Shown: piece by piece, positions 6,011 through 32,000 of the stretch | Position numbering within the stretch: the stretch's first letter is position 1 | Layout of the letters: every line of letters begins with the position of its first letter | DNA from: Candidatus Nanoarchaeia archaeon | GTDB taxonomy: Archaea > Nanobdellota > Nanobdellia > Woesearchaeales > JANQNC01 | Assembly: GCA_028279745.1 (NCBI GenBank) | Contig: JANQNC010000001.1 | Span: 600,001 to 632,000 of the forward strand | DNA: 32,000 nt | Direction of reading: 5' to 3' | The notes under the pieces: model-generated | Told to the model about the DNA's origin: nothing | The model's database searches: none | Seen by the model: the letters and a program-made list of their open reading frames with translations, nothing else | Position numbers and translations under genes: made by a program

Positions 6011-7779
6011 TTTTCGTATACTGTATAATCTGTGAAGTCTCTCTTTATAAATCCATAGCTTGATAATGCTTCATCTATCTTTGCAGGCGTTTCTATCTCT
6101 CTACCTTTATTTGCTATGAAAACAAATACTTTAGCTTGAGAAGATATTTCAACCAATCCAGGCAGATCATTAGCCAAGAAAGGATTAAGATATGCTCCAG
6201 GAATAAACCTAGAGTAAGTTCTTACCTTCTTAGGTTCAGATTCCTCTTCAAGAATGAAAGTATTAAACATAAACGAATCGGGACTGTACTGGAACTGAGG
6301 TCTTGAAGGATCAAACTTGATGTAACTTACTGAATACCTGTTTTCCTCAAGTTTGGCTTTCTTGTATTGTTTTAGTTCTGCTGCTGTGTTAAAAATAGGC
6401 ATGCTATCTTTATTTTCACCTTTCATCTTTGCAATTAAAGATTTTGTCAGAGAGATTGCTGCAATCTGAGGTTTTTCGTGAATAAAGTCTCCGCTATCAT
6501 AACAACATTCTAGATTAACAAGGAAAATAGGGCCTGCGGCAGTTGAAACATATTCAAATGCATCCCTGTTAATGTCTCCTTTTGCATGTTTGATCACAGA
6601 GGTAAAACCTATGTTAAGCAATAGCAAAAATATTGTGATTAATATAAAAAATATCATAAACAAACTCTTCAGATTAATCTTTTTACCAAGCCAAGAAAAG
6701 AAAATGTGCATTCCTTTAACCGTAAATAGGGCAACAAAAGGTATAACATGCATTATGTATCTTAGCTGTCTGTTTGAAATCAAGAAAGTTGAAAGTATAA
6801 TTATGGTTAGGACAAGGAAAACCATCTCTTTATTTTCTGATATGAAACTGTCTTTCTTCTTGAAGAACAGTATGAAAGGAATCAAAGCGAATAGTGCCAG
6901 GAAGAATGTTTCAAAAGTTAGCTGTATTGGGAAGTGGAAAAGCCAAGCAAGACCAGAACCTCTCCCTTCAGATACCCCCTGCCAAAGAAGCTGCTTGTAA
7001 GTCTCGAACTTGATAAGACTAAACCAGACCCAAGGCAAAGTGATTATGAAAGTAATTACTAATTGAATTATGAACTCTTTTATCAGCTTAAATGGTTGGT
7101 GTTTCCTAATGAATAAGAATATTGCATATGCTAAAATGAATGCAGCTGCAAAAATAATTGATTGATACCTTATTAGGAAGGCCAGTGCTAAGAATATCCC
7201 TCCGATGAATATTGAAATGCTTCCCAGGCTTACTTTTTTGTTGTTTATGTTGATTGCAATCCTTTTTGAGCCTTTAATAAATGTGAAATAAAACCACCCC
7301 AAGAAGATGTAACTTACTGATGTATCAACCATAGAATCTCTGTTGAATAAGAAGATGTAAGGAATCAAACTGCATAGGATGACTGTGCAGTAAGCTAGAA
7401 GTTTATTGTTGAAAACTTTTTTTGATATAAGATAAAGGAATATTGAACCTATAACGAAAAAGAACATCGAAGGCAGTTTTGAAGCGTATTCATTGGGGCC
7501 TGCTATAAGGAAGAAAAAAGATTGTGCTATTGCGTGTAAAGGAGGATCATGTAATACATAAAAACCTATAGCTTGCTTTTCATTATATGCTTCCATAAAA
7601 GATTCAACACCCATAAAATTACCTTGGAGTATGTTTGAAAAATACTTATAGAAGAAAACACCTTGGTTTGCGTGTCTTGACTGATCATAACCAAGATTAG
7701 AACTTATATTAATATGAAAAAGACCCACAAAAATAACTAAAATAAAAAATAAAACTAAAAATTCTTTTTTAATCTTCAT
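6007..7779 (-). CDS. GT-C fold polytopic membrane glycosyltransferase (ArnT/PMT/AglS-like, Dol-P-sugar dependent) with a C-terminal soluble domain
   Basis: 590 aa. About a dozen hydrophobic helices are followed by a soluble domain of roughly 190 aa. It lies immediately downstream of aglB and upstream of two Dol-P-sugar-synthase-like GT2 genes. The start ATG shares one nt with the aglB stop (TAATG). Confidence 0.55.
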
Positions 7780-10700
7780 TACCTTTTACCCTCGACCAAA
7801 ATCAGGTGATATCCGAATTGAGTCTTGACTGGCTGTGAAATTTCTCCCACCTCTAAGTTAAATGCTGCCTGTTCAAAAGGAGCAACCATCATACCTTTAC
7901 CGAACCAACCAAGGTCTCCTCCTCTCACTGATGAAGGCCCTTCAGAATATTCTGTTGCAAGTTCTGCAAAATTCTCTTCAGTTGCATTTTCTCTTATCTC
8001 GTTGATAAGGCTTAATGCTTCCTCTTCAGTTCGGTTGTCTAAGTTGATAAGTATGTGTCTTGCTTTTATCTCATTCTTTAACACTTCGTTATATGCTGTG
8101 CCGTCCCACTTAACCTTGTAGATGTAGATTCCTCGTGCTTTATGGAACAGTTGGAAATATTTAGAGAATCTGCCTTCAAAGAAGTAAAGGTGTGTGAAAA
8201 CTGACTCAGTCAGAGCAGGATCAGACACAAGAACTCTTTCGTTTTCCATATCGAATAGAACATCATAAGGAATTCCTGAATCGTTGTACTCTTCTTTAAG
8301 AATTCCTTCTTCAAAGAACATCGTTCCATTCTCCGCAGACACGCCATTAAACCCTATTTTAGCAAAACCTGCAGGTCTTAAAGAAGAACCGCCAACTACT
8401 GCGCCAGTATCTGAGTTTTGAGTAACTAGGTTGAATGTAGCAGACTCATTGATTATAGAGACTGAGTCAAGAACCAAATTATTAACTCCTTGTCTTCCAA
8501 GGCCAATAGATAATCTGCAATCGTAACCTTCTTGGGTCTGTGAACAACTTTTCCATCCCCCACTTATGTAAGAAGGCCAAGGACTTATCCACTGATCTGC
8601 ATTAGTATTTTTTATGTCAAAGTAAACTTTATTTGCGGTATTCTCATCTAACCCATATCTGTCTTTCAAAAGCTGTATGCCTTCACCAACTTTTAATTTT
8701 CTTACTTGGTTGTGCATCTCTGCTTTTGTGAAATTCCATGAACCAAAGTGCGCCCAAACACCTGACTTACCAATCATATCGCTTGAAACAATATAGTAAT
8801 TTTCCCAAGGCTCGCAATGTGTACTTTCGATTATAGATGAGGTTTGTTGTGATGTGAAACCTTCATCAGATAACAGCTGTGCTGCTTCATCTTCATCTAG
8901 AAGAATCAGTTGGTTAAGTATTTCTATAGATTTTACAGTATCGTTAGCTGTGAAGCTTTCTAGTTTTACTGAAGCATTATTTTGGTCACAGTTAAGCATC
9001 CTAAGTATTGCTGCAGATTCTTCTTCTGAATTAGTCAGTAATGATTTACCAACCCAATGAATCCTTTTTCCTTGGTCACCACCATCGAAAGTTACTGGTC
9101 GTTCAGCAATTGCTTTAAACCAATGACCAAAGTCCCACCAGCTTGTTATAATTGCATTGTCAACAGTTGAATCTTCCTTGATCGTTATTAAAGAACTGTA
9201 CCAACCATCATTCATACTTGGTGTTTCTGAAACTGCAACTTGATATCCTCTAACTGTAGGGAATAACACAATGAAGAAAATTATTATTACAATCAAAGAG
9301 GTCATAACCCACGAAGGCATGTCAAGTTCTTTTTTGGTCCATCTTCTAAGCGGTTCGTATATTGTTCCAATAAGAACGCCTATAGCTAAAGCGAACCCAG
9401 GAACTAAAATTGCACTAAACCTTATACTTTTGATAGCAGCATAAGTTCCTGAAACAAACCAGACTGCAAGTAAAATTGCACTAACCATGTAAAAACTCCA
9501 AAGTTTGTCTTTCTTTACAAGTTTTAGGATTGCAACAGTGAACAAAGCTACAACTCCCCCAATAGCTACAAAGAATAATAAGCCTCCCATAGAGTTCATA
9601 ACACCTGATATGCTTGAAGGATTAAGCTCTGCAACTGTCGTTAAAACGTTAGGCCATAAATTAACTTCAGCAACTGCCTTAAGATTTATGAACCATAAAG
9701 GTTTTCCTAATGCGCCAACAACACTTGTGAACCCTTCAGAGAATTTTCTTCCAGATACTAAGAAGATAAGTGAACTGAATATTGCAGTACTTAGGAATAT
9801 TGTGATCAGTCCTGATAAAGGTGTTGTTATTGAAGATAGTGATTTCTTAATGTGTTTTCTGTTCTTGATCAGTTGGATAACTAACATGGCTCCTGCAGCA
9901 GTCAGTAGGAAAACAAAGTTATACCACCAACCACTCCATAAAGAGTTGTGTAAAGCTATAATAAATCCTGAACCTGCAAACAGAGCTATCTTTTTCTTAA
10001 GATCTTTTGAAGTGTAAGCTTCTAAGAACAGCCAGATTGCCGTTACAGGAAGCAAGAAGTGATAAGCGTCAGTGTCTGCAAAACCTGCTGTAGTTCTAGT
10101 CATCAATGCAGGATGGACTGCTGCCAAAGTTGCTGAAATGAACCCTCCAACATTGCCTGCAATCTTTCTTCCCAAAAAGAAAAGAGGGATAACCCCTAAA
10201 GTACAGATCAATAACGGAGATAGGAATGCTGCCTGCATAACGGTGTAGTCTTTGTTGAATATACTCATTATTCGATATATCCAAGATTCAAATAGAGGGT
10301 GGAAGTTACCTTCTTGTTCAACCTGCCATCTTCCTTTTTTTAGGATGTCATAACTTTTTCCGTCAATCTCTATCTCTCCAATGTGGCCATTGTTAACATA
10401 GTTTAAAGCGTGTTTGTACCAAAGATAGGGATCTATAGCTAAAAGATATGTGTTGCCATTTTCATCCTGATAGAAAGACCTTAAACTATTGGCTTGGTCT
10501 TTGATGGCTTGCTCTATAGCATCACCTTGTTCAGCCTTAACCTGCTCAAATTTTTTCAAAGCTTCAGCTCGTTTTTCTGCAGCAGGAAGGAAAGGGTATT
10601 GAGATTCAATCTCAGATTCATAGCTAGATATCAAATTATTATAAAGCTGATCTCTTACTCTATCTTCAAAACCAGACAGGTAAATTGGTTGAGCTCTTAG

Positions 10701-11048
10701 AAAGATACTCAAAAATATTGGGATAAGTATCAGTAATATTAAACCAGATTTTTTGAAAAAGCTGGTTACTCCTTTAAGGTCAACAGAAACTTCTTCATCT
10801 TCAGACTTAGTTTCAACTTTATGTTCTGGTTTTTGTTCTTTGTGCTTTTTAGATTTTCCTTTGAAAATTTTCTTGAAATCTATAGTGATCTCTTCCTCAT
10901 CAGAATCAACTTTTTTATCTTCTTTATGCTTTTCGCTAGCTTCAGAATGCTTTTTATGCTCTTCAGTACTCAATGTATGACACCCCCAATATTTAGCTAA
11001 AATATCGACACTGCATTTATAAAGGTTATGATTGGCATATATAAACAA
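7779..11048 (-). CDS. aglB: Archaeal oligosaccharyltransferase AglB (STT3 family) fused to a C-terminal parvulin-type peptidyl-prolyl isomerase domain
   Basis: WWDFGHW (WWDYG catalytic motif) is encoded at 9120-9140. The first-loop [10 protein letters not shown] and GFADTDAYH acidic motifs are present, with many TM helices. The last ~99 aa (about 7782-8078) read KARHILI...[21 protein letters not shown]...[22 protein letters not shown], a PpiC/parvulin rotamase signature. The start is uncertain: ATG 11048 leaves only 35 bp to the divergent gene, and a TTG near 10970 is possible. Confidence 0.85.
7782..8078 (-). other. Parvulin (PpiC-type) PPIase domain forming the C-terminus of AglB
   Basis: See the aglB entry. 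The domain is in frame and contiguous with the STT3 C-terminal domain, with no stop between them. Confidence 0.8.
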
Positions 11049-22097: not shown

Positions 22098-22799
22098 ATG
22101 AAAGTAAGCTCAGGAAATGAAGCAATTGATAGATTATTGGAAGGGGGGGTTGAGACAGATGTGATAACTACTGTCTATGGGCCTGCTGGTTCAGGTAAGA
22201 CAAATATTGCTTTGATAATGGCAGTCAAAGCTGTTTCATCTGGCAAAAAAGTTGTGTTCATCGATACAGAAGGTGGTTTTTCTATTGAAAGGTTAAAACA
22301 GGTCTGCCATGACTATAAGAAAGTACTTGATCAGGTGTTGTTTTTCAAACCGACTTCATTCAAAGAACAAAATAATGCGATCGATAAGTTGAAAGGGATA
22401 CTTAATAATAAGATTGGGTTAGTAATAGTTGACTCAATTGCTCATCTGTATAGGATCGAGATGGCTGAAAAAGAAGCAATCTATTCTGTAAACAAAGCGA
22501 TGGGGAAGTCGATTGGGATATTGACTGAAGTTGCCAGACTGAATAAAGTTCCAGTTTTAGTTACAAATCAAGTTTATTCTGCATTTGATGAAAGAGAGAA
22601 AGTAAATATGGTGGGTGGAGATTTACTTAAGTATGGAAGCAAATGTTTAGTTGAGTTACAGAAAACACCTGAGGGCAATAGAAGGGCTGTTCTTAAGAAA
22701 CATCGGAGTCTTGCTGAAGAGAAAGACATCGTGTTTAGGATAGTCAATGATGGGATAAAGGTTACAAAAGAAGGTAAAGGTTTTGGTTTGTTTAAGTAG
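22098..22799 (+). CDS. radB: DNA repair and recombination protein RadB (RadA/RecA-family paralog without an N-terminal HhH domain)
   Basis: 233 aa. IDRLLEGGVETDVITTVYGPAGSGKTN contains Walker A, and LVIVDSI is Walker B. The short RecA-core-only size is typical of RadB. Confidence 0.8.
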   Translation: MKVSSGNEAIDRLLEGGVETDVITTVYGPAGSGKTNIALIMAVKAVSSGKKVVFIDTEGGFSIERLKQVCHDYKKVLDQVLFFKPTSFKEQNNAIDKLKGILNNKIGLVIVDSIAHLYRIEMAEKEAIYSVNKAMGKSIGILTEVARLNKVPVLVTNQVYSAFDEREKVNMVGGDLLKYGSKCLVELQKTPEGNRRAVLKKHRSLAEEKDIVFRIVNDGIKVTKEGKGFGLFK

Positions 22800-22808
22800 A
22801 GTTTGGGA

Positions 22809-23708
22809 TTATTTTGTTTTCGAATAACTGTTCTCGGATGTAATGTCTCTCCCCTTGTCTACGTGAGGTGTGAATTTGATATCAATCCATTTAGACTTAA
22901 CATTAATGGAACCATCAGGCATGTGTTTCACATAAGAATCTTTAGGAACGAACTGATTATCAAGATGGAATACTCCCCCTGTTGAATCTAAATACTGCTT
23001 CATATCATCAGTGAATTTATAACGAGTAACACCATGTTCAGAACAAATACCTGAACTGAAATCAACGCTGGAGTCTGCCTTCCTAACACGATTTAAGTTG
23101 ATTATTCCAGAAACCATGTCAACAACAGATACCCTTGCAGTATGTTTGCCTTTGAAAATAGAATGCATAACTTCAGAAGTCTCTTTTTGAGAATTATCAT
23201 GGTATGCCTCTCTAGCTTTTGTTTCAGGCATTTTAGATGCCTCCTGTTCAAATACCTCAGGATCGCAATGAATATGCCAACCTTCAACCCTTTTATTGCC
23301 CTTAGCTAACTTTGCCAGATAGTCTCTATCCACTAACACTTCAGCTCTTATAAAACTAGAGTGGTTGTACAATTTTTCACGATATCCAGTTTCATGCCAT
23401 TCTTTTTTGTCAGGCAAGTAGACCCAGTTTTCTTCAAGAGGCTGATTTAATAAAGTACGCATGTCTTGTATCCCTTCATCCATGCCTTTATTAACAACCT
23501 GCCGCGTTTTATTTTCAGTGTTTAACGCCAGCTTATCTACTAATTCATTATCACGTTTTGGGATTCTATACTCATAATATTTTATATAATTGTAAAGTTC
23601 TTTATGGGGAATTGGAACATTAGGAAATAACTTTTCTACTGCCATTGAGGCTCCAAAGTAATAAGATGCCACAACCCATGTCCAAAATAATTTCTTTTTG
23701 AATCCCAT
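22809..23708 (-). CDS. Hypothetical membrane-anchored protein of unknown function (299 aa)
   Basis: The N-terminal MGFKKKLFWTWVVASYYFGASMAV is a signal anchor. The rest is hydrophilic and His/Asp/Glu-rich (for example VEGWHIHCDPEVF). I place the start at ATG 23708, one nt after the stop of the upstream RHH gene. The track start at 23738 would overlap that gene. Confidence 0.55.
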   Translation of the reverse strand: MGFKKKLFWTWVVASYYFGASMAVEKLFPNVPIPHKELYNYIKYYEYRIPKRDNELVDKLALNTENKTRQVVNKGMDEGIQDMRTLLNQPLEENWVYLPDKKEWHETGYREKLYNHSSFIRAEVLVDRDYLAKLAKGNKRVEGWHIHCDPEVFEQEASKMPETKAREAYHDNSQKETSEVMHSIFKGKHTARVSVVDMVSGIINLNRVRKADSSVDFSSGICSEHGVTRYKFTDDMKQYLDSTGGVFHLDNQFVPKDSYVKHMPDGSINVKSKWIDIKFTPHVDKGRDITSENSYSKTK

Positions 23709-23709
23709 A

Positions 23710-23841
23710 TTATACTCCCAAAATCTCATTAACTGCAAATTCGATAGCGTGAGATTTATTTCTAAATACTCCTTTGCTGACTTGCTCTTTAATTCTAAAA
23801 AGGGTTTCAGTATCTATTGAAACGCATATTTTTTCCTTCAT
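23710..23841 (-). CDS. Ribbon-helix-helix (CopG/Arc/MetJ-type) DNA-binding protein, 43 aa; not in the supplied ORF track
   Basis: Hand translation gives MKEKICVSIDTETLFRIKEQVSKGVFRNKSHAIEFAVNEILGV. The pattern is a beta-strand (ICVSID), helix (ETLFRIKEQV), G-x turn, then helix (NKSHAIEFAVNEIL), as expected for an RHH fold. The stop TAA at 23712-23710 lies 1 nt from the ATG of the next gene. Confidence 0.6.
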   Translation of the reverse strand: MKEKICVSIDTETLFRIKEQVSKGVFRNKSHAIEFAVNEILGV

Positions 23842-23938: not shown

Positions 23939-24139
23939 TCTATTCCCATTTAGGCACCAGATGTGTACCTATTATGTAGGTATTTTTACTTACAATTTGA
24001 GTTATTTTACTTACTAATTAAGTATATTTACTTATTTTGTAGGTTTTTTACCTACTTAGTAGGTTTAATTACTTACATAGTAGGACAAATACTTACATGG
24101 TAAGTCTTTTTTACTTACATAGTAAGTACAATAGAAAGT

Positions 24140-24147
24140 TTTATAAA
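24140..24147 (+). promoter_or_regulatory. TATA-box-like element (TTTATAAA), distal candidate promoter of the HTH/surface-protein operon
   Basis: It lies in the only 42-bp gap of the iteron array, 7 bp upstream of iteron 9. Confidence 0.35.
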
Positions 24148-24171
24148 GGATTAAACTTACAATGTAAGTTA

Positions 24172-24179
24172 TTATAAAT
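24172..24179 (+). promoter_or_regulatory. TATA-box-like element (TTATAAAT), proximal candidate promoter of the HTH/surface-protein operon
   Basis: It lies 8 bp upstream of iteron 10 and about 35 bp upstream of ATG 24211. Confidence 0.4.
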
Positions 24180-24210
24180 AAATAACAACTTACATAGTGA
24201 GTATTAAAAC

Positions 24211-24429
24211 ATGATGGATGAGTATGGGAACGAAATAGAGACTTCTAAAATATTTATACCTATCTCGATCTTCGAAGATAGAAGACTTTCTGCATTAGAA
24301 TCAATCGTTGAATATCTCAAAGAAAAAAGACATCTAACACTACACCAAATTGGAGTCATGCTCAACAGAGATGACAGAACAATCTGGACAACATACAACA
24401 GAGCAAAACAGAAGAGGAAGAAAAGATGA
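24211..24429 (+). CDS. Small helix-turn-helix DNA-binding protein (sigma-70 region 4/LuxR-like HTH), 72 aa
   Basis: LSALESIVEYLKEKRHLTLHQIGVMLNRDDRTIWTTYNRAKQKRKKR has the pattern helix, then HTH (LTLHQIGVMLNRDDRTIWT), then a basic tail. Its TGA overlaps the ATG of the next gene (ATGA at 24426-24429). Confidence 0.6.
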   Translation: MMDEYGNEIETSKIFIPISIFEDRRLSALESIVEYLKEKRHLTLHQIGVMLNRDDRTIWTTYNRAKQKRKKR

Positions 24430-26822
24430 AACATCACATAAATAACGCAGTCGCACTAATGTCGGTCATCCTAATACTTACAAGTTCAGTCTTAGTATAC
24501 AATAGTGCAGAAAACATGCTAACAGGCTATTCAATCTATGATCCTGATGCAGAAATCTGCCACCAAAATATTGATTCATGTATTGACTTAGATGGAGATG
24601 GAATGGTCGGATCCGGAAGTAATGACGAAACAATATTCTCCTGTTTAATTGATGAAAATGGACTGGGTTGTCCTGCAAACGATGCTGAATGGATTACTTT
24701 ATTTGGAAACAGCAAAGAAAACTTCACAATACTAGCAGACTTTGACAATGATGGAGGAGTTAGCCAGTTAATAGACTTCCAAAGATGTTACGTGACAATG
24801 AGAGACAGAGCGATAGATGAAGGCACTTCCTATAATGTAACATGTAACCTACCACAAGACGCAGTTAATGATGAAGTCTGCAGGTTTGGATGTCCAGACC
24901 TAAACGGAGATGGATTTGTAGACAAGTATGACTTAGCAATCTTAACCTCAGACTCAGTATGGAAAAATGATAGTTTCAACCAAACATATCCTATGGCAGA
25001 CATGACAAATGATTCTGTTGTAGATTGGGCAGATAGAAACTGTATGAGCCTGTACTCAAATGAGTATGCACTATGCAACTTACCAAGACACTTCGAACAT
25101 GAAAATGTGTATGTGTGTCCTGACTTAGAAAATATTACAACAGACTTAGACAATGATGGATTTGTAGGAGTGAATGATAAAGCGTTGTTTGACTCTTACT
25201 TCGATGATGGTTTGTCAGTTGTTGACTTCACAGGAGAAGGAGACATCAACTGGAAAGACAGATGGGTCTTTGATGAATATTACAACTACAAAGCAGGAAG
25301 CGAATTCAATCAAAGCGTATTGAAAGTTGTAGGATGTAATTTGTACCATGCAGCATGGCACACAGGAGGGTTGGATCAGAACATTTCATGGGGGTTCACA
25401 GGAAGTGGAGGAATGCCGCAATCGATAAACTTCACCGTATTCGACAGTCCTGCAGATAATTTCGACTCGATGGGCACAACATATGGATGGCTAACAAAAG
25501 CAAGAATAAGAATAGAAGGAAACCCTGCAAATACCAAACCAATAAATGTAACGCTAATAGAACCTTCAACAGGCAAGACATTAGCAAGAACAGAAATACC
25601 TCCATTCGGAGATACAAGATGGGCTACAGCATACTTTGCATTACCACCTTACACAAATCCAAGACTAACCAATGGAAGTAATTACACTTTGGTCCTTGAT
25701 AGTCCTGTAACTGAGTTCTATGAAATACAAGGAGGACACAACTTCCAGACCTGGATGACAACAGCACATGGAGACTTGAATGGAGATGGAATAGTTGATA
25801 GTTTAGATGATCTAATCATATCTGCAATAAACGATAATCTGCAGTTTAATGGGACAAGTAACTGGAGTTCAGATTACGATCTTAATAACGATTCAATAAT
25901 AGACAATCTAGATCTGCAAATATTTGTTGATGCTGTTGGAAGCCCACCAATATCTTCACAATCAACAATAAGTGTAGGAAGCTATTCACAAACTTTGCTG
26001 AATGGAGGAGGAATAATTCCAAACGGAGGCTTTAGTACATCTAACGGCACGGGTTGGCCACACAAATGGGTGGATAACCAACCAGATGTGGATGTTCCAA
26101 CTGACATAAGTGTTGTTTCAGGAGAACTAAACATAACTGTAAACAATAACACAGGCAGTTTTACAGGTGTAAGAAGTAAAAAACTAAAACTAAAACCAAA
26201 CACAAAATACAACGTAACTGCAAAAATAAAAATCCCAACCTCGATAACACAATTAGATGGAACTTGGGAGCTACACCGACATGCACACAATGGGTTCTGT
26301 TCAGGAACGCCCGCTTGTCACGATTACACCTTATTAGGCGGGGACTACAGCTGGGATAATAGTACTTCTAGAGGGGTATGGCACGACAAATGGTGGACAA
26401 TTGAAACCGGCGAGAATGTCAAAATAGGCTATGTGTTTGTTATAACAGATGTAAATGGTGGAAACGGAACAATACTTGTTGATGATGTAAGCCTCCACGA
26501 AGTTCCAGGATACGAATGGTTCGGCGGAGCTATAAAACTAAGACAGAAGTTTACAGCAAACACAGACTCACCAATAAAAGTTGTTCAGCTAAATCTTGCG
26601 ATGGATAAAGGAAATGATGATGACATCACTGTCAAGATCCTAGATGAAACGTTCACCCCAGTAGGAAGCACAGTAATACCTGCACTACACAACAGTACAC
26701 CAACAATCTACAACGCAACGTTCACTCCTGCAGTTGCAGTTACACAAGACCTAGATTATTACATTGAAGTAAGTTCGCCAGGAGAATATACAGATTACAG
26801 ATGGTTCGCAAACTATGACTAA
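24426..26822 (+). CDS. Secreted or membrane-anchored surface protein with dockerin-like calcium-binding repeats and a CBM4/9-like jelly-roll domain
   Basis: N-terminal hydrophobic anchor or signal (AVALMSVILILTSSVLV). There are eight D-x-[DN]-x-D-G-type loops: DLDGDGMVG, DFDNDGGVSQLIDF, DLNGDGFVDKYDLAIL, DMTNDSVVDWADRN, DLDNDGFVGVNDKALF, DFTGEGDINWKDRW, DLNGDGIVDSLDDLIISAI and DLNNDSIIDNLDLQIFVDAV. The segment NGGFSTSNGTGWPHKW...GTILVDDVSLHEV resembles a CBM_4_9 domain. I counted roughly two dozen N-X-S/T sequons by hand. Confidence 0.7.
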   Translation: MKHHINNAVALMSVILILTSSVLVYNSAENMLTGYSIYDPDAEICHQNIDSCIDLDGDGMVGSGSNDETIFSCLIDENGLGCPANDAEWITLFGNSKENFTILADFDNDGGVSQLIDFQRCYVTMRDRAIDEGTSYNVTCNLPQDAVNDEVCRFGCPDLNGDGFVDKYDLAILTSDSVWKNDSFNQTYPMADMTNDSVVDWADRNCMSLYSNEYALCNLPRHFEHENVYVCPDLENITTDLDNDGFVGVNDKALFDSYFDDGLSVVDFTGEGDINWKDRWVFDEYYNYKAGSEFNQSVLKVVGCNLYHAAWHTGGLDQNISWGFTGSGGMPQSINFTVFDSPADNFDSMGTTYGWLTKARIRIEGNPANTKPINVTLIEPSTGKTLARTEIPPFGDTRWATAYFALPPYTNPRLTNGSNYTLVLDSPVTEFYEIQGGHNFQTWMTTAHGDLNGDGIVDSLDDLIISAINDNLQFNGTSNWSSDYDLNNDSIIDNLDLQIFVDAVGSPPISSQSTISVGSYSQTLLNGGGIIPNGGFSTSNGTGWPHKWVDNQPDVDVPTDISVVSGELNITVNNNTGSFTGVRSKKLKLKPNTKYNVTAKIKIPTSITQLDGTWELHRHAHNGFCSGTPACHDYTLLGGDYSWDNSTSRGVWHDKWWTIETGENVKIGYVFVITDVNGGNGTILVDDVSLHEVPGYEWFGGAIKLRQKFTANTDSPIKVVQLNLAMDKGNDDDITVKILDETFTPVGSTVIPALHNSTPTIYNATFTPAVAVTQDLDYYIEVSSPGEYTDYRWFANYD

Positions 26823-29800
26823 AAAAACACAAAATAAAAACATGTTGATGCTTTTGATAGTTGCAACACTATTTGCAATAACCTCTGTAGATGCTGTCCT
26901 AAACTGTACTTCGACAGATCCTTGTGAAATTCCTTTTACAGGCGGACACCCACCAGGATTCCCCGCGCCACTAGAAAATTTACAATGTGGAGAGACGTTC
27001 TATTATGAATTTGAACTTCCAAGAAACCATAACTGCCAAGCCACAGTAATATTTGATGTGACTGATGGAGCAAACACCTCAAATAAAATAACATTCGGAG
27101 GCGATGATTTATTACAGAACTGTCAGAGAGTAATAACTTCAGCAGACTCACAACAATGTGAAAACGTAAACATAAATGTGCCCATGGGAATAGATGAACT
27201 ATTCACAGTAACTGCAAGCAGACCTGTAGAAGGGACTGAATGTAATAGCAGTGTAGAGATAGATTACACCTTAGCATATTATGCAACCTGCGCAACTACA
27301 AAAGACGGGTGGGGAAAGAATGGAAGTTTTGTAAACACAACTGGTGGAGAATTTTATTTTGAAACACTAATAGGTGAGGGTGGTAACTTCTCAGGACTGT
27401 CTATCTTTGATGTTAACAGCGATAATGTAATAAATGATACAGACTACTATGACATACTTTCAAGAGATGGTGAGCGAGACGGAACATTCTGGACCCCACT
27501 TATAGACTTTAACGCACAGTTTGGGGTATATGAAGTACTGCTTGATTATACGCTGGGATTCAGAGCATACTTAGGAAAAATAGTAAATGGAGCGATGCCA
27601 ATAAGGTGGTTTATAACACAGGAAAATGATGGACGATGCTCATACGATGAAGATAACACAAGCACAGACTGCCACTATTGTAACAACGATGGGTTCTGCG
27701 CAATAAACGAATATGAATACTTAGGAGAATCATGCCAAGACTGTAACGGGACATTCCCACTAGAACCACAGATGACAGAGTTTGATTCTTGTAGCGAAAC
27801 AACAGACATGGCAGACGTATTAGATATAGAACACGCAGAAAACTTCACAATAGAAGGAGAAGAACCAGGATGTAATGACGGAAACATCATGTTCACTCAA
27901 GAAATTAATCTAACAAATTCAGGATCAGGATACATACCATTAGACATTAACACTTCAATAGACATAATTGACAATTACATAAGCGTAAATACAATAGAAG
28001 CACCACAGTTAGAGAAAGAAGCACAGCTGACAATCTACAACAGAACATGGTGCCACCCAGGAATATTAAAGAATGGTGCAGAATGTGTTGATTGTCCAGT
28101 ACAAGAGTATGGAGATAAAATAAAATCATTAAACGCAACAGGAATAGCTGATGCAGACTTACTAACTAATGTAACAGGGCAAAGCTTTACACTAGAACTA
28201 CAAGCAGAAAACTACACATTTGGGAAATTAACACAAAATAATGTTTACACACAGCAACAAGTCGGACAGGATAGCCCAATAAGTGTTGAGATAGTATCGG
28301 GGGCATTAACAACCAACGCAAGAATAAATATAACAGGAATAAACAAAATAATCTACCTGCCAAAGATGAACTTGGGAGGAGGACCATCTAAAGTTTATGT
28401 TGCAGAAGATGGAAGCACTTACACAGGTGCGGCACTTACAACAATATCAAAATCTGCAGCAGATCCAATAAAAGTAACTTCACTTAGTGCAGTGAACACT
28501 TCAGGACCTCATGGAAAATCATTCTTCTGGTTCTATGCAGGAGAAACACCTACACTATTCGCAACAATAAATAATGATGGGATCTTCAATGCGACAGGCA
28601 CAACAACAGTTCCAACACAGGTAAAAATTGTGTATACTGCAGAGTATCCTGTTAATATCACTCTAGACGGACACCATCTATTCCTACCTTCAACATTCCC
28701 CATATCTAATGCTGCATATCCTGCAACAAACAACATAACATACAAAGAAAGAGATTTAGTGAATGTTAAAAGAACTCCTGAAAAAGATCTAAGCATAGTA
28801 GATAAAGATCCAACTAACTTAACATTTACAGTTCCAGCATTCGGATCAGAACTAATAACAGTATACGAATCAGAAGACCTAGTCCCAAGCTACAGTAACT
28901 TCAACGGAAGCACAACAAACTTCTGTTATGCAAAAGATGAAACGACAACACGAGAACTATCAATATTTAGAGCAGTCATTGAAGATACATCAAATGCAAA
29001 ACTAGGATTAGTAAGTTATGCAAACTTTACAAAACTAGACCTTAATAATGAAATCATCATGGGTGGAAGCAACAAGACAAAAATAATCTGGATAAACGGA
29101 AGCACAAGCGATGAGTTTGAAGGAAAAGCTGCAATAATAACATTCCACAGAATGGATATAGTGCACCCACAAATAATGGGAACTGTAACAAATGTAGTTC
29201 CAATAAGACATTACGTGCCTCCAGGAGAAACACTATCAGAATTCATATTCTATGCGGAACTAACTGGTAGTTCACCAATAAACATAACAATAGTAGACGC
29301 AGATAATCCAACAGAATTCCTAAGTGATATAGATAATATCACAATAAGAAATGGAACACAAGAAGTAAGAATTAATGTAAGTGATCACTTCAGTGATGAC
29401 GATGTTAATGTGACTGACTTAGAGTATGGGGTTGCGAACCAAACAGGAAGCATCAAAGTAACATTTGAGAAAGCAGCAAACGTAGTGACAGCAATAATAA
29501 GACCATTAACAAGGTTCTTCAATCCGTTCAGTTTCCAGTTCTTCGTTTATGAACCTGGAGTAATTGATGGAGAGTCTGCATTCTCTAATTTCCTATTTGG
29601 AAACATACTGCCAGACAGACCACCAATACAAACACAAACAATACTAGACATAGTGTTCAATGAAGATGAAAACGGAACAATAGACTTATCTGACTACTTC
29701 GAAGATCCTGACAACCATCCATTACATTATACTTGGACACCGATAGATGCTGGCGGAAATATAACAATACACAAACAAGGAATGGCACAAAGCTTATGGT

Positions 29801-32000
29801 GGAACATAACTAATGCAACTTACACAGGGAATAACAGCATGACATTCCTACAAGAAGTTATTGCATTAGTTCAAACAAATACAACCGAACTACTTGCATC
29901 TCCAGGAACTTACGGATACATAGTGGCAGCAGGTTATGCAGACCAGACAGCTGAAGAAGGAACAGACCTACTTAGAATAAACTTCTGGAACACAACAGGA
30001 AATGGAATGTCATTCCCAGAAGGAAACATAAGCATAACATATGACAACGGAAAAGATCTGAAGATATACATACCTGAAGTTACCTATACTGATAGGAATA
30101 ACTTCTCACTATTCGTATCAAAAGACGGATCAACATACTATGATGAAGGACTAACACAGATTGCAAAAGTCTCACCTAACCCTATAGTTGTTCCTAGCTT
30201 AGTAATAGAACCAGATAGTGATTGGCACGGCAAGAGAACAATAGTCTTCATAGCAAACGACACAATACACAAGAAAACAAGCAACAACGTAGACATAATT
30301 GTTCATAACCTAAACGATGCACCAAGGAAACACAAAGACATTGATGATATAGTAATGCTAGAGGGAACTGTTGAGTTTGTTGTAAATGTAACACCCGACT
30401 ACTTATTCGATATAGACATACCTACAGACACCGAGTTTGAAGCAGATGATGAACTAACATTAACATATTCAAAACAGGGCGGCGGTGATGCTGAGTTTAT
30501 CAACTTAACATTCAGCAATAACGGAGTTTATAGCGTTACAGAAGATAAACCAGTTAATATAACAGTTAAAGCACTGGATTTCCCATACTGGAACGGGTAT
30601 GAAGCACTAACAGTAAAAGCAACAGACTCATACGGTAAGAGTGTTGAGACAAACTTCACAGTATACATAATAGAAGTACCAACAGATCTTAACAGAACAA
30701 TACTTCCAGCATACATCCCAATGGTTGAAGATGAAACTTATCCATTTGAACTGAACAACAACTGGTTTGTGGATGTGGAAGGAGATGCAACCTACAGATA
30801 CTTCGGATTAAATTCAACAAACATAACAATAGAACTGAATATCGATAGTGGAAATGGAACAATCAGAGCAGATCCAGACTGGTTTGGTGTAGCTGTAGTT
30901 AATTTCTCAGCATCAGACGCGACAAGCAACGTATCAGATATGTTTGTGATAAATGTAACACCAGTAAATGACGCGCCAAGATTATATGGAGACATAGAAG
31001 TAAAACCATGGCCAAAAGATGAAAGTTATCTGGTTAATTTATCAGACCACTTCTACGAAGCATACGGAGAAGACACAAACAGTCTAGTGTTCTCAGACAT
31101 AGACATAATACCAACACTAAGCACAACCTATCATGAACTAATCGCAAACAGCTATACTAGTGAGACTGCAAACATGACCCCTGACACAGGATGGTACGGA
31201 TCAGGATGGATAACCTTCTGCGCAGACGATGGTCAGTATCAGACGTGCAGCAACATAGTAAGACTAAACATAACATCTGACAAACCGCCACAGTTAATAT
31301 CACCATTCAATAGTCCGGAAATATGGCCAGAAGATAATGTTAACTACATCAACCTAGAAGAACACTTCTGGGATGAAGAATTAGGAAGTGAGTTAGATTT
31401 CACACCATCACTAATAGGACCATTTGATGGATTCAACATAACACCATACGGGGAGTTGATTAACAGTAATGTATTACTTAACTTAAGCAACGTAAGAAAA
31501 GCAGCATACAACTTAACACTGGGAGGAGGATTCACATTCATAGCAGCAGACAACAGTGGAAGATACTTAACAACCGCATATGGAACAAACGGAACACAGA
31601 CACCAATCTTCCTATTAAGCCCACTACAACACAATGCAAAACCAATCAAGATATACAAGACAAGCATGAAAGATCCAAGCTTTGAACTACCTGAAGAGAC
31701 TTATAATTTAACAGGAAACGCAAACATTAGTGTAAGTTACACAGCTTATGAAGGAGATAAGTCAAGGAGAGTAGAAAGAAACATCGGAACAGGAATAACA
31801 GGAATAACAACAATAGATCCTATACCTGTAGTCAGTAACCAACAGTACACAGTATCAGCAGTAATAACAACAGAGAACATAAGAGATCCTGGTGAGTCTG
31901 TAACAGTGGCAATAGAATGTGATGGCATAGCAACTGAAGTAGCAATACCAGGAATGACAACACAAAAACAAGGACTGACAGATTGGGAGGATTGGGACAC
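26815..32000 (+). CDS. Giant secreted surface protein/adhesin, 5' part only (more than 1,700 codons, open at the window end); Cys-rich N-terminal region plus cadherin-like/tandem-95-like repeats with VNDAP motifs
   Basis: I translated frame +1 by hand from ATG 26815 to 32000 and found no stop. The N-terminus MTKKTQNKNMLMLLIVATLFAITSVDA looks like a signal peptide; an alternative ATG lies at 26842. Repeat ends IIVHNLNDAPRKHKDIDD and INVTPVNDAPRLYGDIEV, plus repeat starts such as PDRPPIQTQTILDIVFNEDENGTIDLSDYFEDPDNHPLHY, match large bacterial and archaeal adhesin repeats. The start overlaps the stop of the preceding gene by 8 nt. The ORF is absent from the track because it has no in-window stop. 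Confidence 0.8.
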   Translation, partial: MTKKTQNKNMLMLLIVATLFAITSVDAVLNCTSTDPCEIPFTGGHPPGFPAPLENLQCGETFYYEFELPRNHNCQATVIFDVTDGANTSNKITFGGDDLLQNCQRVITSADSQQCENVNINVPMGIDELFTVTASRPVEGTECNSSVEIDYTLAYYATCATTKDGWGKNGSFVNTTGGEFYFETLIGEGGNFSGLSIFDVNSDNVINDTDYYDILSRDGERDGTFWTPLIDFNAQFGVYEVLLDYTLGFRAYLGKIVNGAMPIRWFITQENDGRCSYDEDNTSTDCHYCNNDGFCAINEYEYLGESCQDCNGTFPLEPQMTEFDSCSETTDMADVLDIEHAENFTIEGEEPGCNDGNIMFTQEINLTNSGSGYIPLDINTSIDIIDNYISVNTIEAPQLEKEAQLTIYNRTWCHPGILKNGAECVDCPVQEYGDKIKSLNATGIADADLLTNVTGQSFTLELQAENYTFGKLTQNNVYTQQQVGQDSPISVEIVSGALTTNARINITGINKIIYLPKMNLGGGPSKVYVAEDGSTYTGAALTTISKSAADPIKVTSLSAVNTSGPHGKSFFWFYAGETPTLFATINNDGIFNATGTTTVPTQVKIVYTAEYPVNITLDGHHLFLPSTFPISNAAYPATNNITYKERDLVNVKRTPEKDLSIVDKDPTNLTFTVPAFGSELITVYESEDLVPSYSNFNGSTTNFCYAKDETTTRELSIFRAVIEDTSNAKLGLVSYANFTKLDLNNEIIMGGSNKTKIIWINGSTSDEFEGKAAIITFHRMDIVHPQIMGTVTNVVPIRHYVPPGETLSEFIFYAELTGSSPINITIVDADNPTEFLSDIDNITIRNGTQEVRINVSDHFSDDDVNVTDLEYGVANQTGSIKVTFEKAANVVTAIIRPLTRFFNPFSFQFFVYEPGVIDGESAFSNFLFGNILPDRPPIQTQTILDIVFNEDENGTIDLSDYFEDPDNHPLHYTWTPIDAGGNITIHKQGMAQSLWWNITNATYTGNNSMTFLQEVIALVQTNTTELLASPGTYGYIVAAGYADQTAEEGTDLLRINFWNTTGNGMSFPEGNISITYDNGKDLKIYIPEVTYTDRNNFSLFVSKDGSTYYDEGLTQIAKVSPNPIVVPSLVIEPDSDWHGKRTIVFIANDTIHKKTSNNVDIIVHNLNDAPRKHKDIDDIVMLEGTVEFVVNVTPDYLFDIDIPTDTEFEADDELTLTYSKQGGGDAEFINLTFSNNGVYSVTEDKPVNITVKALDFPYWNGYEALTVKATDSYGKSVETNFTVYIIEVPTDLNRTILPAYIPMVEDETYPFELNNNWFVDVEGDATYRYFGLNSTNITIELNIDSGNGTIRADPDWFGVAVVNFSASDATSNVSDMFVINVTPVNDAPRLYGDIEVKPWPKDESYLVNLSDHFYEAYGEDTNSLVFSDIDIIPTLSTTYHELIANSYTSETANMTPDTGWYGSGWITFCADDGQYQTCSNIVRLNITSDKPPQLISPFNSPEIWPEDNVNYINLEEHFWDEELGSELDFTPSLIGPFDGFNITPYGELINSNVLLNLSNVRKAAYNLTLGGGFTFIAADNSGRYLTTAYGTNGTQTPIFLLSPLQHNAKPIKIYKTSMKDPSFELPEETYNLTGNANISVSYTAYEGDKSRRVERNIGTGITGITTIDPIPVVSNQQYTVSAVITTENIRDPGESVTVAIECDGIATEVAIPGMTTQKQGLTDWEDWD

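Follow-up and report, generated by a model that had tools for sequence, protein, structure and literature searches.

The window, i.e., the whole 32-kb stretch of archaeal DNA analysed here (G+C ~35%), carries in its upstream 22 kb a protein-glycosylation island (STT3/AglB, GT1/GT2/GT4, PMT_2, and an ABC-2 transporter) that ends beside a putative surface-protein operon. Within the island, an STT3/AglB oligosaccharyltransferase encoded on the minus strand (7779-11048) is fused to a C-terminal PPIC-type peptidyl-prolyl isomerase domain. Beyond radB (22098-22799; TIGR02237, E = 6e-70), the minus strand carries a 309-aa ORF and a 43-aa, ribbon-helix-helix (RHH)-like ORF (23710-23841), the pair lying within 22809-23841. 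The RHH gene is 125 bp from an array of ten palindromic sites (23967-24202), and directly downstream of the array is the gene for a 72-aa helix-turn-helix (HTH) protein with a predicted sigma-70 region 4-like fold (24211-24429, plus strand). The HTH stop codon overlaps the next start codon (ATGA), that of a 798-aa protein gene (24426-26822, plus strand), and since the two genes overlap, the HTH gene and the genes downstream of it are predicted to constitute an operon, with the HTH gene as its first. The 798-aa protein has an N-terminal signal/anchor sequence and weak dockerin-like and DUF4082 matches. Its ORF is overlapped in turn by a giant, signal-peptide-encoding ORF (26815-32000, plus strand) that exceeds 1728 aa and runs past the end of the window. 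In the orthologous locus L081, the counterpart of the 798-aa gene likewise follows the HTH gene and that of the giant ORF encodes 2954 aa. The chromosomal order radB, HTH gene, giant gene is conserved in the orthologous loci.

Reading of the window and a pattern search for ACTTAC-N3-GTAAGT placed the ten sites at 23967, 23988, 24009, 24030, 24050, 24071, 24091, 24113, 24155, and 24188 (starts), with 3, 2, 1, 2, 2, 2, 0, 0, 0, and 1 mismatches to the pattern, respectively; by this count, site 1 (23967) is the weakest. The whole window contains 10 matches with at most two mismatches, compared to 1.5 expected, and 9 of the 10 sit inside 236 bp. When the AT-rich 236 bp alone were shuffled 5000 times with dinucleotide composition preserved, the number of such matches averaged 0.13 and never exceeded 3, as opposed to the 9 observed. 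Therefore, the array is not a low-complexity artefact of AT-rich sequence, and the ten-copy palindrome array described in an earlier note on this DNA was confirmed. In full, the motif is a 17-bp palindrome, T-ACTTACA-N-TGTAAGT-A, as judged from a logo of independent sites at other loci. With a 17-bp weight matrix built exclusively from the sites of other species, the ten sites scored 10.0-25.5 bits, while the best position elsewhere in the 32-kb window scored 4.4 bits. Scores for sites 1-8 were 11.0, 12.4, 12.3, 10.0, 14.7, 12.7, 16.2, and 25.5 bits, i.e., the distal sites 1-7 are degenerate (~10-16 bits). A pattern match at 24476 was rejected as an array member and attributed to chance, as it scored below 4.4 bits with the same matrix.

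Start-to-start spacings from site 1 to site 10 are 21, 21, 21, 20, 21, 20, 22, 42, and 33 bp. The first eight sites thus form a distal block (23967-24127) with steps of 20-22 bp and a mean of 20.86 bp, equal to two helical turns. The earlier note had recognized this two-turn phasing for eight copies; in fact, all ten sites share one helical phase, from which they deviate by -2 to +0.5 bp (best-fit period 10.45 bp, R = 0.91). Tandem Repeats Finder reported the block with periods of 20, 21, and 41 bp. The hallmark of a CRISPR array is identical repeats separated by unique spacers of ~30 bp, and this identity was rejected given the 21-bp period, 5-7 bp spacers, and degenerate copies at our locus. 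Two mechanically called ORFs, one of 46 aa across the array (23963-24103, plus strand) and one of 77 aa antisense to the HTH gene (24204-24437, minus strand), were dismissed as artefacts of repeats and AT-rich sequence. Curvature driven by T-tracts was discarded as well, since the T-rich spacers are not kept in orthologues. Likewise, a role at the RNA level is unlikely: the long hairpin into which the array folds (z = -8) follows trivially from tandem palindromes, and sites 1-8 are upstream of the predicted promoter. A search of Rfam with the array gave no match.

The 72-aa protein encoded next to the array was modelled by AF2 as a small, helical HTH domain (pLDDT 87.5), a helical bundle in which the last two helices form the HTH, as in the sigma-70 region 4/LuxR-type fold. 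The best Foldseek matches in the PDB were region 4 of SigR, SigW, SigE, and SigD (TM to target 0.6-0.8, rmsd 0.8-1.3 A), with superpositions covering 45-50 residues of the model; the DNA-binding domain of RcsB was also matched. At the sequence level, the protein fell below the curated Pfam/NCBIfam thresholds (HTH_11, E = 0.018; nothing relevant in NCBIfam), and its homologues carry weak precomputed matches to PF08281. The predicted fold is shared with sigma-70 region 4 and LuxR/GerE HTHs. However, the archaeal 72-aa protein is a stand-alone domain without sigma regions 2 or 3, and in place of the C-terminal dimerisation helix of LuxR-type proteins it has its own conserved N-terminal IPxSIF strand. 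It contains no sensor domain. The family comprises ~2,226 clusters at 50% identity, occurs in Woesearchaeota and Nanoarchaeota assemblies, and has a nearly invariant recognition helix (R-DD-RTIWT-Y-RAKKK). Also unlike the sigma and LuxR HTHs, its domain occurs in 1, 2, 3, or 4 tandem copies per protein. A natural two-domain relative was modelled as a compact structure (pLDDT 91.5, pTM 0.84) with both conserved N-terminal (I/V)P strands as beta, and no chain in the PDB had its arrangement (TM 0.35 or less). Several proteins of 1.4-5.9 kaa (P0054, P0059, P0062, and P0070) have four HTH stretches at the C-terminus and are either true giant-protein fusions or products of missed stop codons. A literature search, with most subscription journals outside its reach, found no description of the family or of the motif.

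To compare this arrangement with that of other genomes, we used 80 loci with HTH homologues from different GTDB species. Sites with at most two mismatches numbered 148 in the 30.6 kb upstream of HTH genes and 25 in the remaining 529 kb, an enrichment of ~100-fold directly upstream of these genes. Indeed, every one of the 124 sites with 0-1 mismatches was within 600 bp upstream of an HTH gene, and outside these 600-bp zones there were just 19 two-mismatch matches, mostly inside ORFs. The positions left free by the search pattern (0, 7, 9, and 16) were 82-92% conserved among the sites of the other loci. At least one site was found in 50 of the 80 loci and at least three in 27; in the loci devoid of sites, the HTH gene largely follows a giant ORF directly, without an intergenic region. 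Very large genes are regular neighbours: a member of one very-large-protein cluster adjoins the HTH gene in 71 of the 80 loci, the next gene is 700 aa or longer, or truncated by the locus end, in 37, and a giant ORF directly precedes the HTH gene in 12. The giant proteins of the family's loci contain Laminin_G_3, cadherin-like, subtilase, DUF285, and beta-helix domains, which are typical of cell-surface or secreted proteins. The HTH proteins are a putative, previously undescribed regulator family of DPANN archaea, and the module of protein, motif, and giant gene recurs in dozens of related genomes and is conserved among DPANN archaea of the Woesearchaeota type. Many of the records L001-L080 are TPA entries titled "uncultured Methanosarcinales archaeon"; because of the gene content and low G+C of the loci, this title looks like a placeholder or mislabelled taxonomy.

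The three gene-proximal sites of the window are embedded in the predicted promoter of the HTH gene itself. Site 8 (ACTTACATAGTAAGT, 24113-24127), the strongest at 25.5 bits, is directly upstream of a predicted core promoter, P1 (24133-24147, plus strand), in which the BRE-like, purine-rich AGAAAG precedes the TATA box TTTTATAAA. Site 9 (ACTTACAATGTAAGT, 24155-24169; 20.9 bits) falls between this TATA box and a transcription start site (TSS) predicted at ~24170. Site 10 (ACTTACATAGTGAGT, 24188-24202; 18.7 bits) begins 33 bp past site 9 and ends 8 nt before the HTH start codon, and sites 8, 9, and 10 thereby flank the BRE/TATA element. Between sites 9 and 10 there is a second TATA-like stretch, TTATAAATAAATA (24172-24184, plus strand), possibly a second promoter; its function is doubtful, since it is not conserved in L081, L083, and L084. 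When the loci were aligned on the site nearest the gene, the same layout emerged across the family, i.e., site, BRE/TATA, site, then start, with gene starts in the related loci being crude calls. A purine-rich BRE plus TATA element, gAAAnnTTTAWATA, is followed 5-9 bp later by a palindrome, and recurs at this position in the orthologues and in the majority of the family's loci. The site between the TATA box and the start is the most conserved of the family and often the sole one; in several leaderless-type loci the start codon abuts the palindrome, and the site fills the whole TATA-to-start interval. Commonly there is a second site as well, located 41-46 bp from the proximal one and immediately before the BRE. 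The association of the array with a giant surface-protein operon, suggested by the earlier note, thus held up, as the array sits in the promoter of the operon encoding giant secreted proteins.

Further evidence on the binder came from loci in which operator and protein have changed together. Thirteen loci were classed as encoding one polypeptide in which a divergent HTH domain at the N-terminus (recognition helix NRNEIALAVTYRNAKKK) is joined to a canonical one at the C-terminus; on inspection, the two domains of one of these (L062) turned out to be similar and its sites symmetric, and two loci (L046 and L048) had no recognizable sites. In the remaining fusion loci, the operator retains only the ACTTACA half-site, always on the strand of the gene, and the other half is altered: T (92%) gives way to A (78%) at position 9, and G (97%) to A (62%) at position 10. 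Where the protein has a single domain, or two similar ones, the palindromes are symmetric, and a four-domain relative (P0053) is accompanied by two abutting palindromes right after the TATA box. This protein-DNA correspondence is the strongest computational support for the proposal that each HTH domain reads one half-site. Co-varying half-sites in homologous loci, which the earlier note had proposed looking for, were thereby borne out in the form of asymmetric operators accompanying divergent-domain fusions. Family-wide, moreover, the nearly invariant recognition helix is matched by an invariant motif.

The earlier note had left open which of the two flanking proteins binds the array. Motif co-occurrence and co-variation both point to the HTH protein, which is the likely binder, and against the RHH protein. 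The 80 HTH loci contain no homologue of either the RHH protein or the 309-aa ORF, and orthologous loci with HTH proteins 73% to over 90% identical to that of the window keep the array without the RHH gene. Searches of Pfam, NCBIfam, and PADLOC returned nothing for the two ORFs beyond a weak, CdrS-like RHH match. The array had also been described as lying between two divergently transcribed DNA-binding genes; the HTH gene is directly downstream of the array and is not divergent from it, and the RHH gene is adjacent but unrelated. Different small two-gene cassettes occupy the slot separating radB from the HTH gene, the RHH and 309-aa pair of the window being one of them, and this slot looks like a hotspot of toxin-antitoxin-like modules. 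The same slot is empty in L081, is occupied by nucleotidyltransferase and 151-aa genes in L083 (1109-2099), and holds a PIN gene and a 55-aa gene in L234 (2105-2743).

The geometry of the array is conserved among orthologues. Arrays of L081, L083, and L084 align site by site with that of the window, and among these four sequences pairwise identity is 0.785 at core positions of the sites and 0.76 at the BRE/TATA element as opposed to 0.468 in the spacers. The block series 21, 21, 21, 20, 21, 20, 22 is identical in the window, L081, and L084, and six orthologous lineages share the series 21, 20, 21, 20, 22, then 42-43 bp, then exactly 33 bp. Similarly phased arrays, which the earlier note had proposed looking for in homologous loci, are present in all six lineages. 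The L083 array has one extra unit and one destroyed site: the palindrome at L083 2212-2226 is wholly lost (-25 bits), with the 21-bp register intact on both sides. Since the register survives the loss of this palindrome, spacing appears to be more constrained than any single distal site. The arrays of L234-L236 have two fewer units, and that of L237 is cut by the end of its contig; distal sites number 6 in L234, 8 in the window, L081, and L084, and 9 in L083. Lengths outside the array vary freely among the orthologues, and no indel was found inside the block. Because spacing is kept while spacers diverge and flank lengths vary, the array geometry, beyond the sites alone, is under purifying selection, with changes in the number of distal units (6-9). 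Over the whole family, helical phasing is not significant (Rayleigh p = 0.36), and the tight 20-22 bp phasing is a trait of particular lineages; outside them the spacing is irregular, yet 21-bp steps recur (L068, L070, and L080).

These observations suggest that the array is probably a cooperative, autoregulatory operator of the 72-aa HTH protein, which would repress the giant surface-protein operon. Binding itself, the number of HTH molecules per site, their cooperation, the TSS, and the direction of regulation are all inferred, as follows. Each 17-bp palindrome, TACTTACA-N-TGTAAGTA, would be bound by one HTH dimer, formed probably via the conserved N-terminal IPxSIF strand. The strong sites 8 and 9 would place dimers on either side of the BRE/TATA element, with site 10 located 33 bp beyond site 9, and the seven more upstream sites at two-turn steps would align further dimers on one face of the helix, where they could touch their neighbours. 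Cooperative filling would then hold the repressor over the region of RNA polymerase recruitment, and a filled array would shut off the HTH gene (negative autoregulation) together with two very large secreted or surface proteins, giving a steep response to HTH concentration. In archaea, a protein that occupies the DNA from the TATA box to the TSS prevents polymerase from being recruited, and repression is proposed here because the proximal site sits between the TATA box and the predicted TSS; negative autoregulation is proposed because the operon begins with the HTH gene. The one-face geometry also fits the suggestion of the earlier note that the array serves a cooperative nucleoprotein assembly.

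Several considerations count against this model. The 72-aa protein lacks a sensor domain through which repression might be relieved, the distal sites are degenerate and vary in number among orthologues, and tight packing is confined to some lineages. Negative autoregulation of an operon with very large structural proteins is not an obvious design, and the site next to the BRE on its upstream side is in the classical position of an archaeal activator (e.g., Ptr2), so the protein may instead activate, or act in both ways. With the same binder and array, the HTH protein at site 8 and upstream could recruit TBP/TFB and activate its own operon, with positive feedback and cooperativity yielding a bistable ON/OFF switch in which sites 9 and 10 repress only at high concentration. 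The strongest site of the array abuts the upstream side of the BRE, a BRE-upstream site at 41-46 bp spacing is widespread in the family, and a bistable switch would be biologically sensible for costly giant surface proteins. Nevertheless, the TATA-to-start site that is the family's most conserved, and often its sole, site is in a repressor position, and we regard such an activating or dual role as unlikely. It is very unlikely that only sites 8, 9, and 10 function and that sites 1-7 are decaying relics, without a role, of a 21-bp tandem duplication by slippage. Such an origin would agree with the 20/21/41-bp tandem periodicity, with the lower scores of the distal sites, and with their differing copy number among orthologues. 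However, the distal sites have been retained position for position, with core identity of 0.79 against nearly saturated spacers (0.47), the block is free of indels despite variable flank lengths, and every distal site scores well above the rest of the window.

Two further readings are far less credible. A plasmid or virus partition centromere, or iterons, bound by the RHH protein and left by an integrated replicon would account for the RHH gene 125 bp away and for a superficial likeness to parC of plasmid R1, in which ten repeats surround a promoter and the binder is an RHH protein. But the RHH protein and its 309-aa partner lack homologues in the 80 motif-screened loci, and orthologues keep the array with nothing, a PIN cassette, or a nucleotidyltransferase cassette in the RHH slot. 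No ParA/ParM/TubZ or Rep gene was found in the 32-kb window. Iterons are direct repeats beside a Rep initiator gene, and were rejected given the palindromic repeats of the array and a window devoid of such a gene. Among 2.9 million viral contigs, 72,556 plasmids, and 50,697 phage records, none matched the HTH family, and the motif 17-mer was found in 29 viral contigs, singly in each. The centromere, iteron, or mobile-replicon interpretation raised in the earlier note was thus not upheld, there being no partition ATPase or Rep gene and a conserved chromosomal context, and we consider it extremely improbable. The same holds for a chromosomal replication origin with ORB-like repeats in AT-rich DNA at a switch in gene orientation. 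Gene orientation and GC skew do switch near 20-24 kb, in a region that is repeat-rich and AT-rich; however, orc1/cdc6 is absent from the 32-kb window, the motif is always found in promoter geometry, and it accompanies the HTH gene on two or more contigs of a single assembly (L038 and L043; L064 and L072).

For the repressive operator that we favour, the nearest described analogue cited here is Ss-LrpB of Sulfolobus solfataricus, which binds its own control region at three similar palindromic boxes of 15 bp set at regular intervals; for Lrp-type proteins, cooperative binding to such arrays of degenerate sites is usual (PMC1802622). Both cases involve an archaeal regulator, its own control region, and regularly spaced palindromes. 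They differ in that Ss-LrpB, a member of the Lrp/AsnC family with a ligand and oligomerisation domain, has three boxes, while the array in the window has ten sites at two-turn spacing and a predicted 72-aa, sigma-region-4-like binder without an effector domain. Archaeal repressors of the MDR1, Phr, LrpA, and TrmB types have operators between the TATA box and the TSS, the position also held by site 9, but they are from other protein families, use one to three sites, and sense a ligand or stress; no signal is evident at the array. ParR-parC (plasmid R1) and the heptad arrays of the omega repressor (pSM19035) involve RHH binders on direct repeats that are also centromeres for a partition NTPase. 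These systems resemble the array in having about ten packed repeats around a promoter and a small, dimeric, cooperative autoregulator (predicted for the array), and differ from it in that the window has palindromes, an HTH protein, no partition gene, and a chromosomal location.

DPANN archaea, which are uncultured and have tiny genomes, presumably attach to their hosts by means of giant surface proteins; to our knowledge, very little has been established on how the genes for these proteins are controlled. What the present analysis adds is a putative regulator family, its candidate DNA motif, a conserved promoter architecture, and a link to giant surface-protein operons. For an archaeon, the ten-site, in-phase array is an unusually large and well-conserved predicted cooperative operator, and could serve as a natural model for a steep response from a minimal HTH protein without a sensor. 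In metagenome-assembled genomes of DPANN archaea, the motif may further help to annotate promoters and regulons. A more speculative and quite unlikely extension is that the family is the master switch of a shared-operator network, in which each giant operon is headed by a copy of a regulator of the same specificity and the operons cross-regulate one another. If so, array size and strength would rank the host-attachment proteins in a hierarchy, or make their expression variable and mutually exclusive, much as in antigenic variation, in these episymbiotic DPANN archaea, and the fusions of 1-4 domains would be hard-wired versions of the cooperative oligomer.

The DNA word itself is not diagnostic. 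A scan for paired sites 19-24 bp apart found ACTTAC-N3-GTAAGT twice in the divergent promoter between genes for a TetR-family regulator and a zinc-type quinone oxidoreductase (L091 4046-4082; also L085-L164), a double palindrome present in at least 80 soil-metagenome contigs, most with a G+C of 0.55-0.73. This double operator of high-GC soil bacteria shares with the array its DNA word and a location within a promoter. However, it has only two sites, and its protein, domain of life, and gene context are unrelated to those of the array; the likeness is coincidental.
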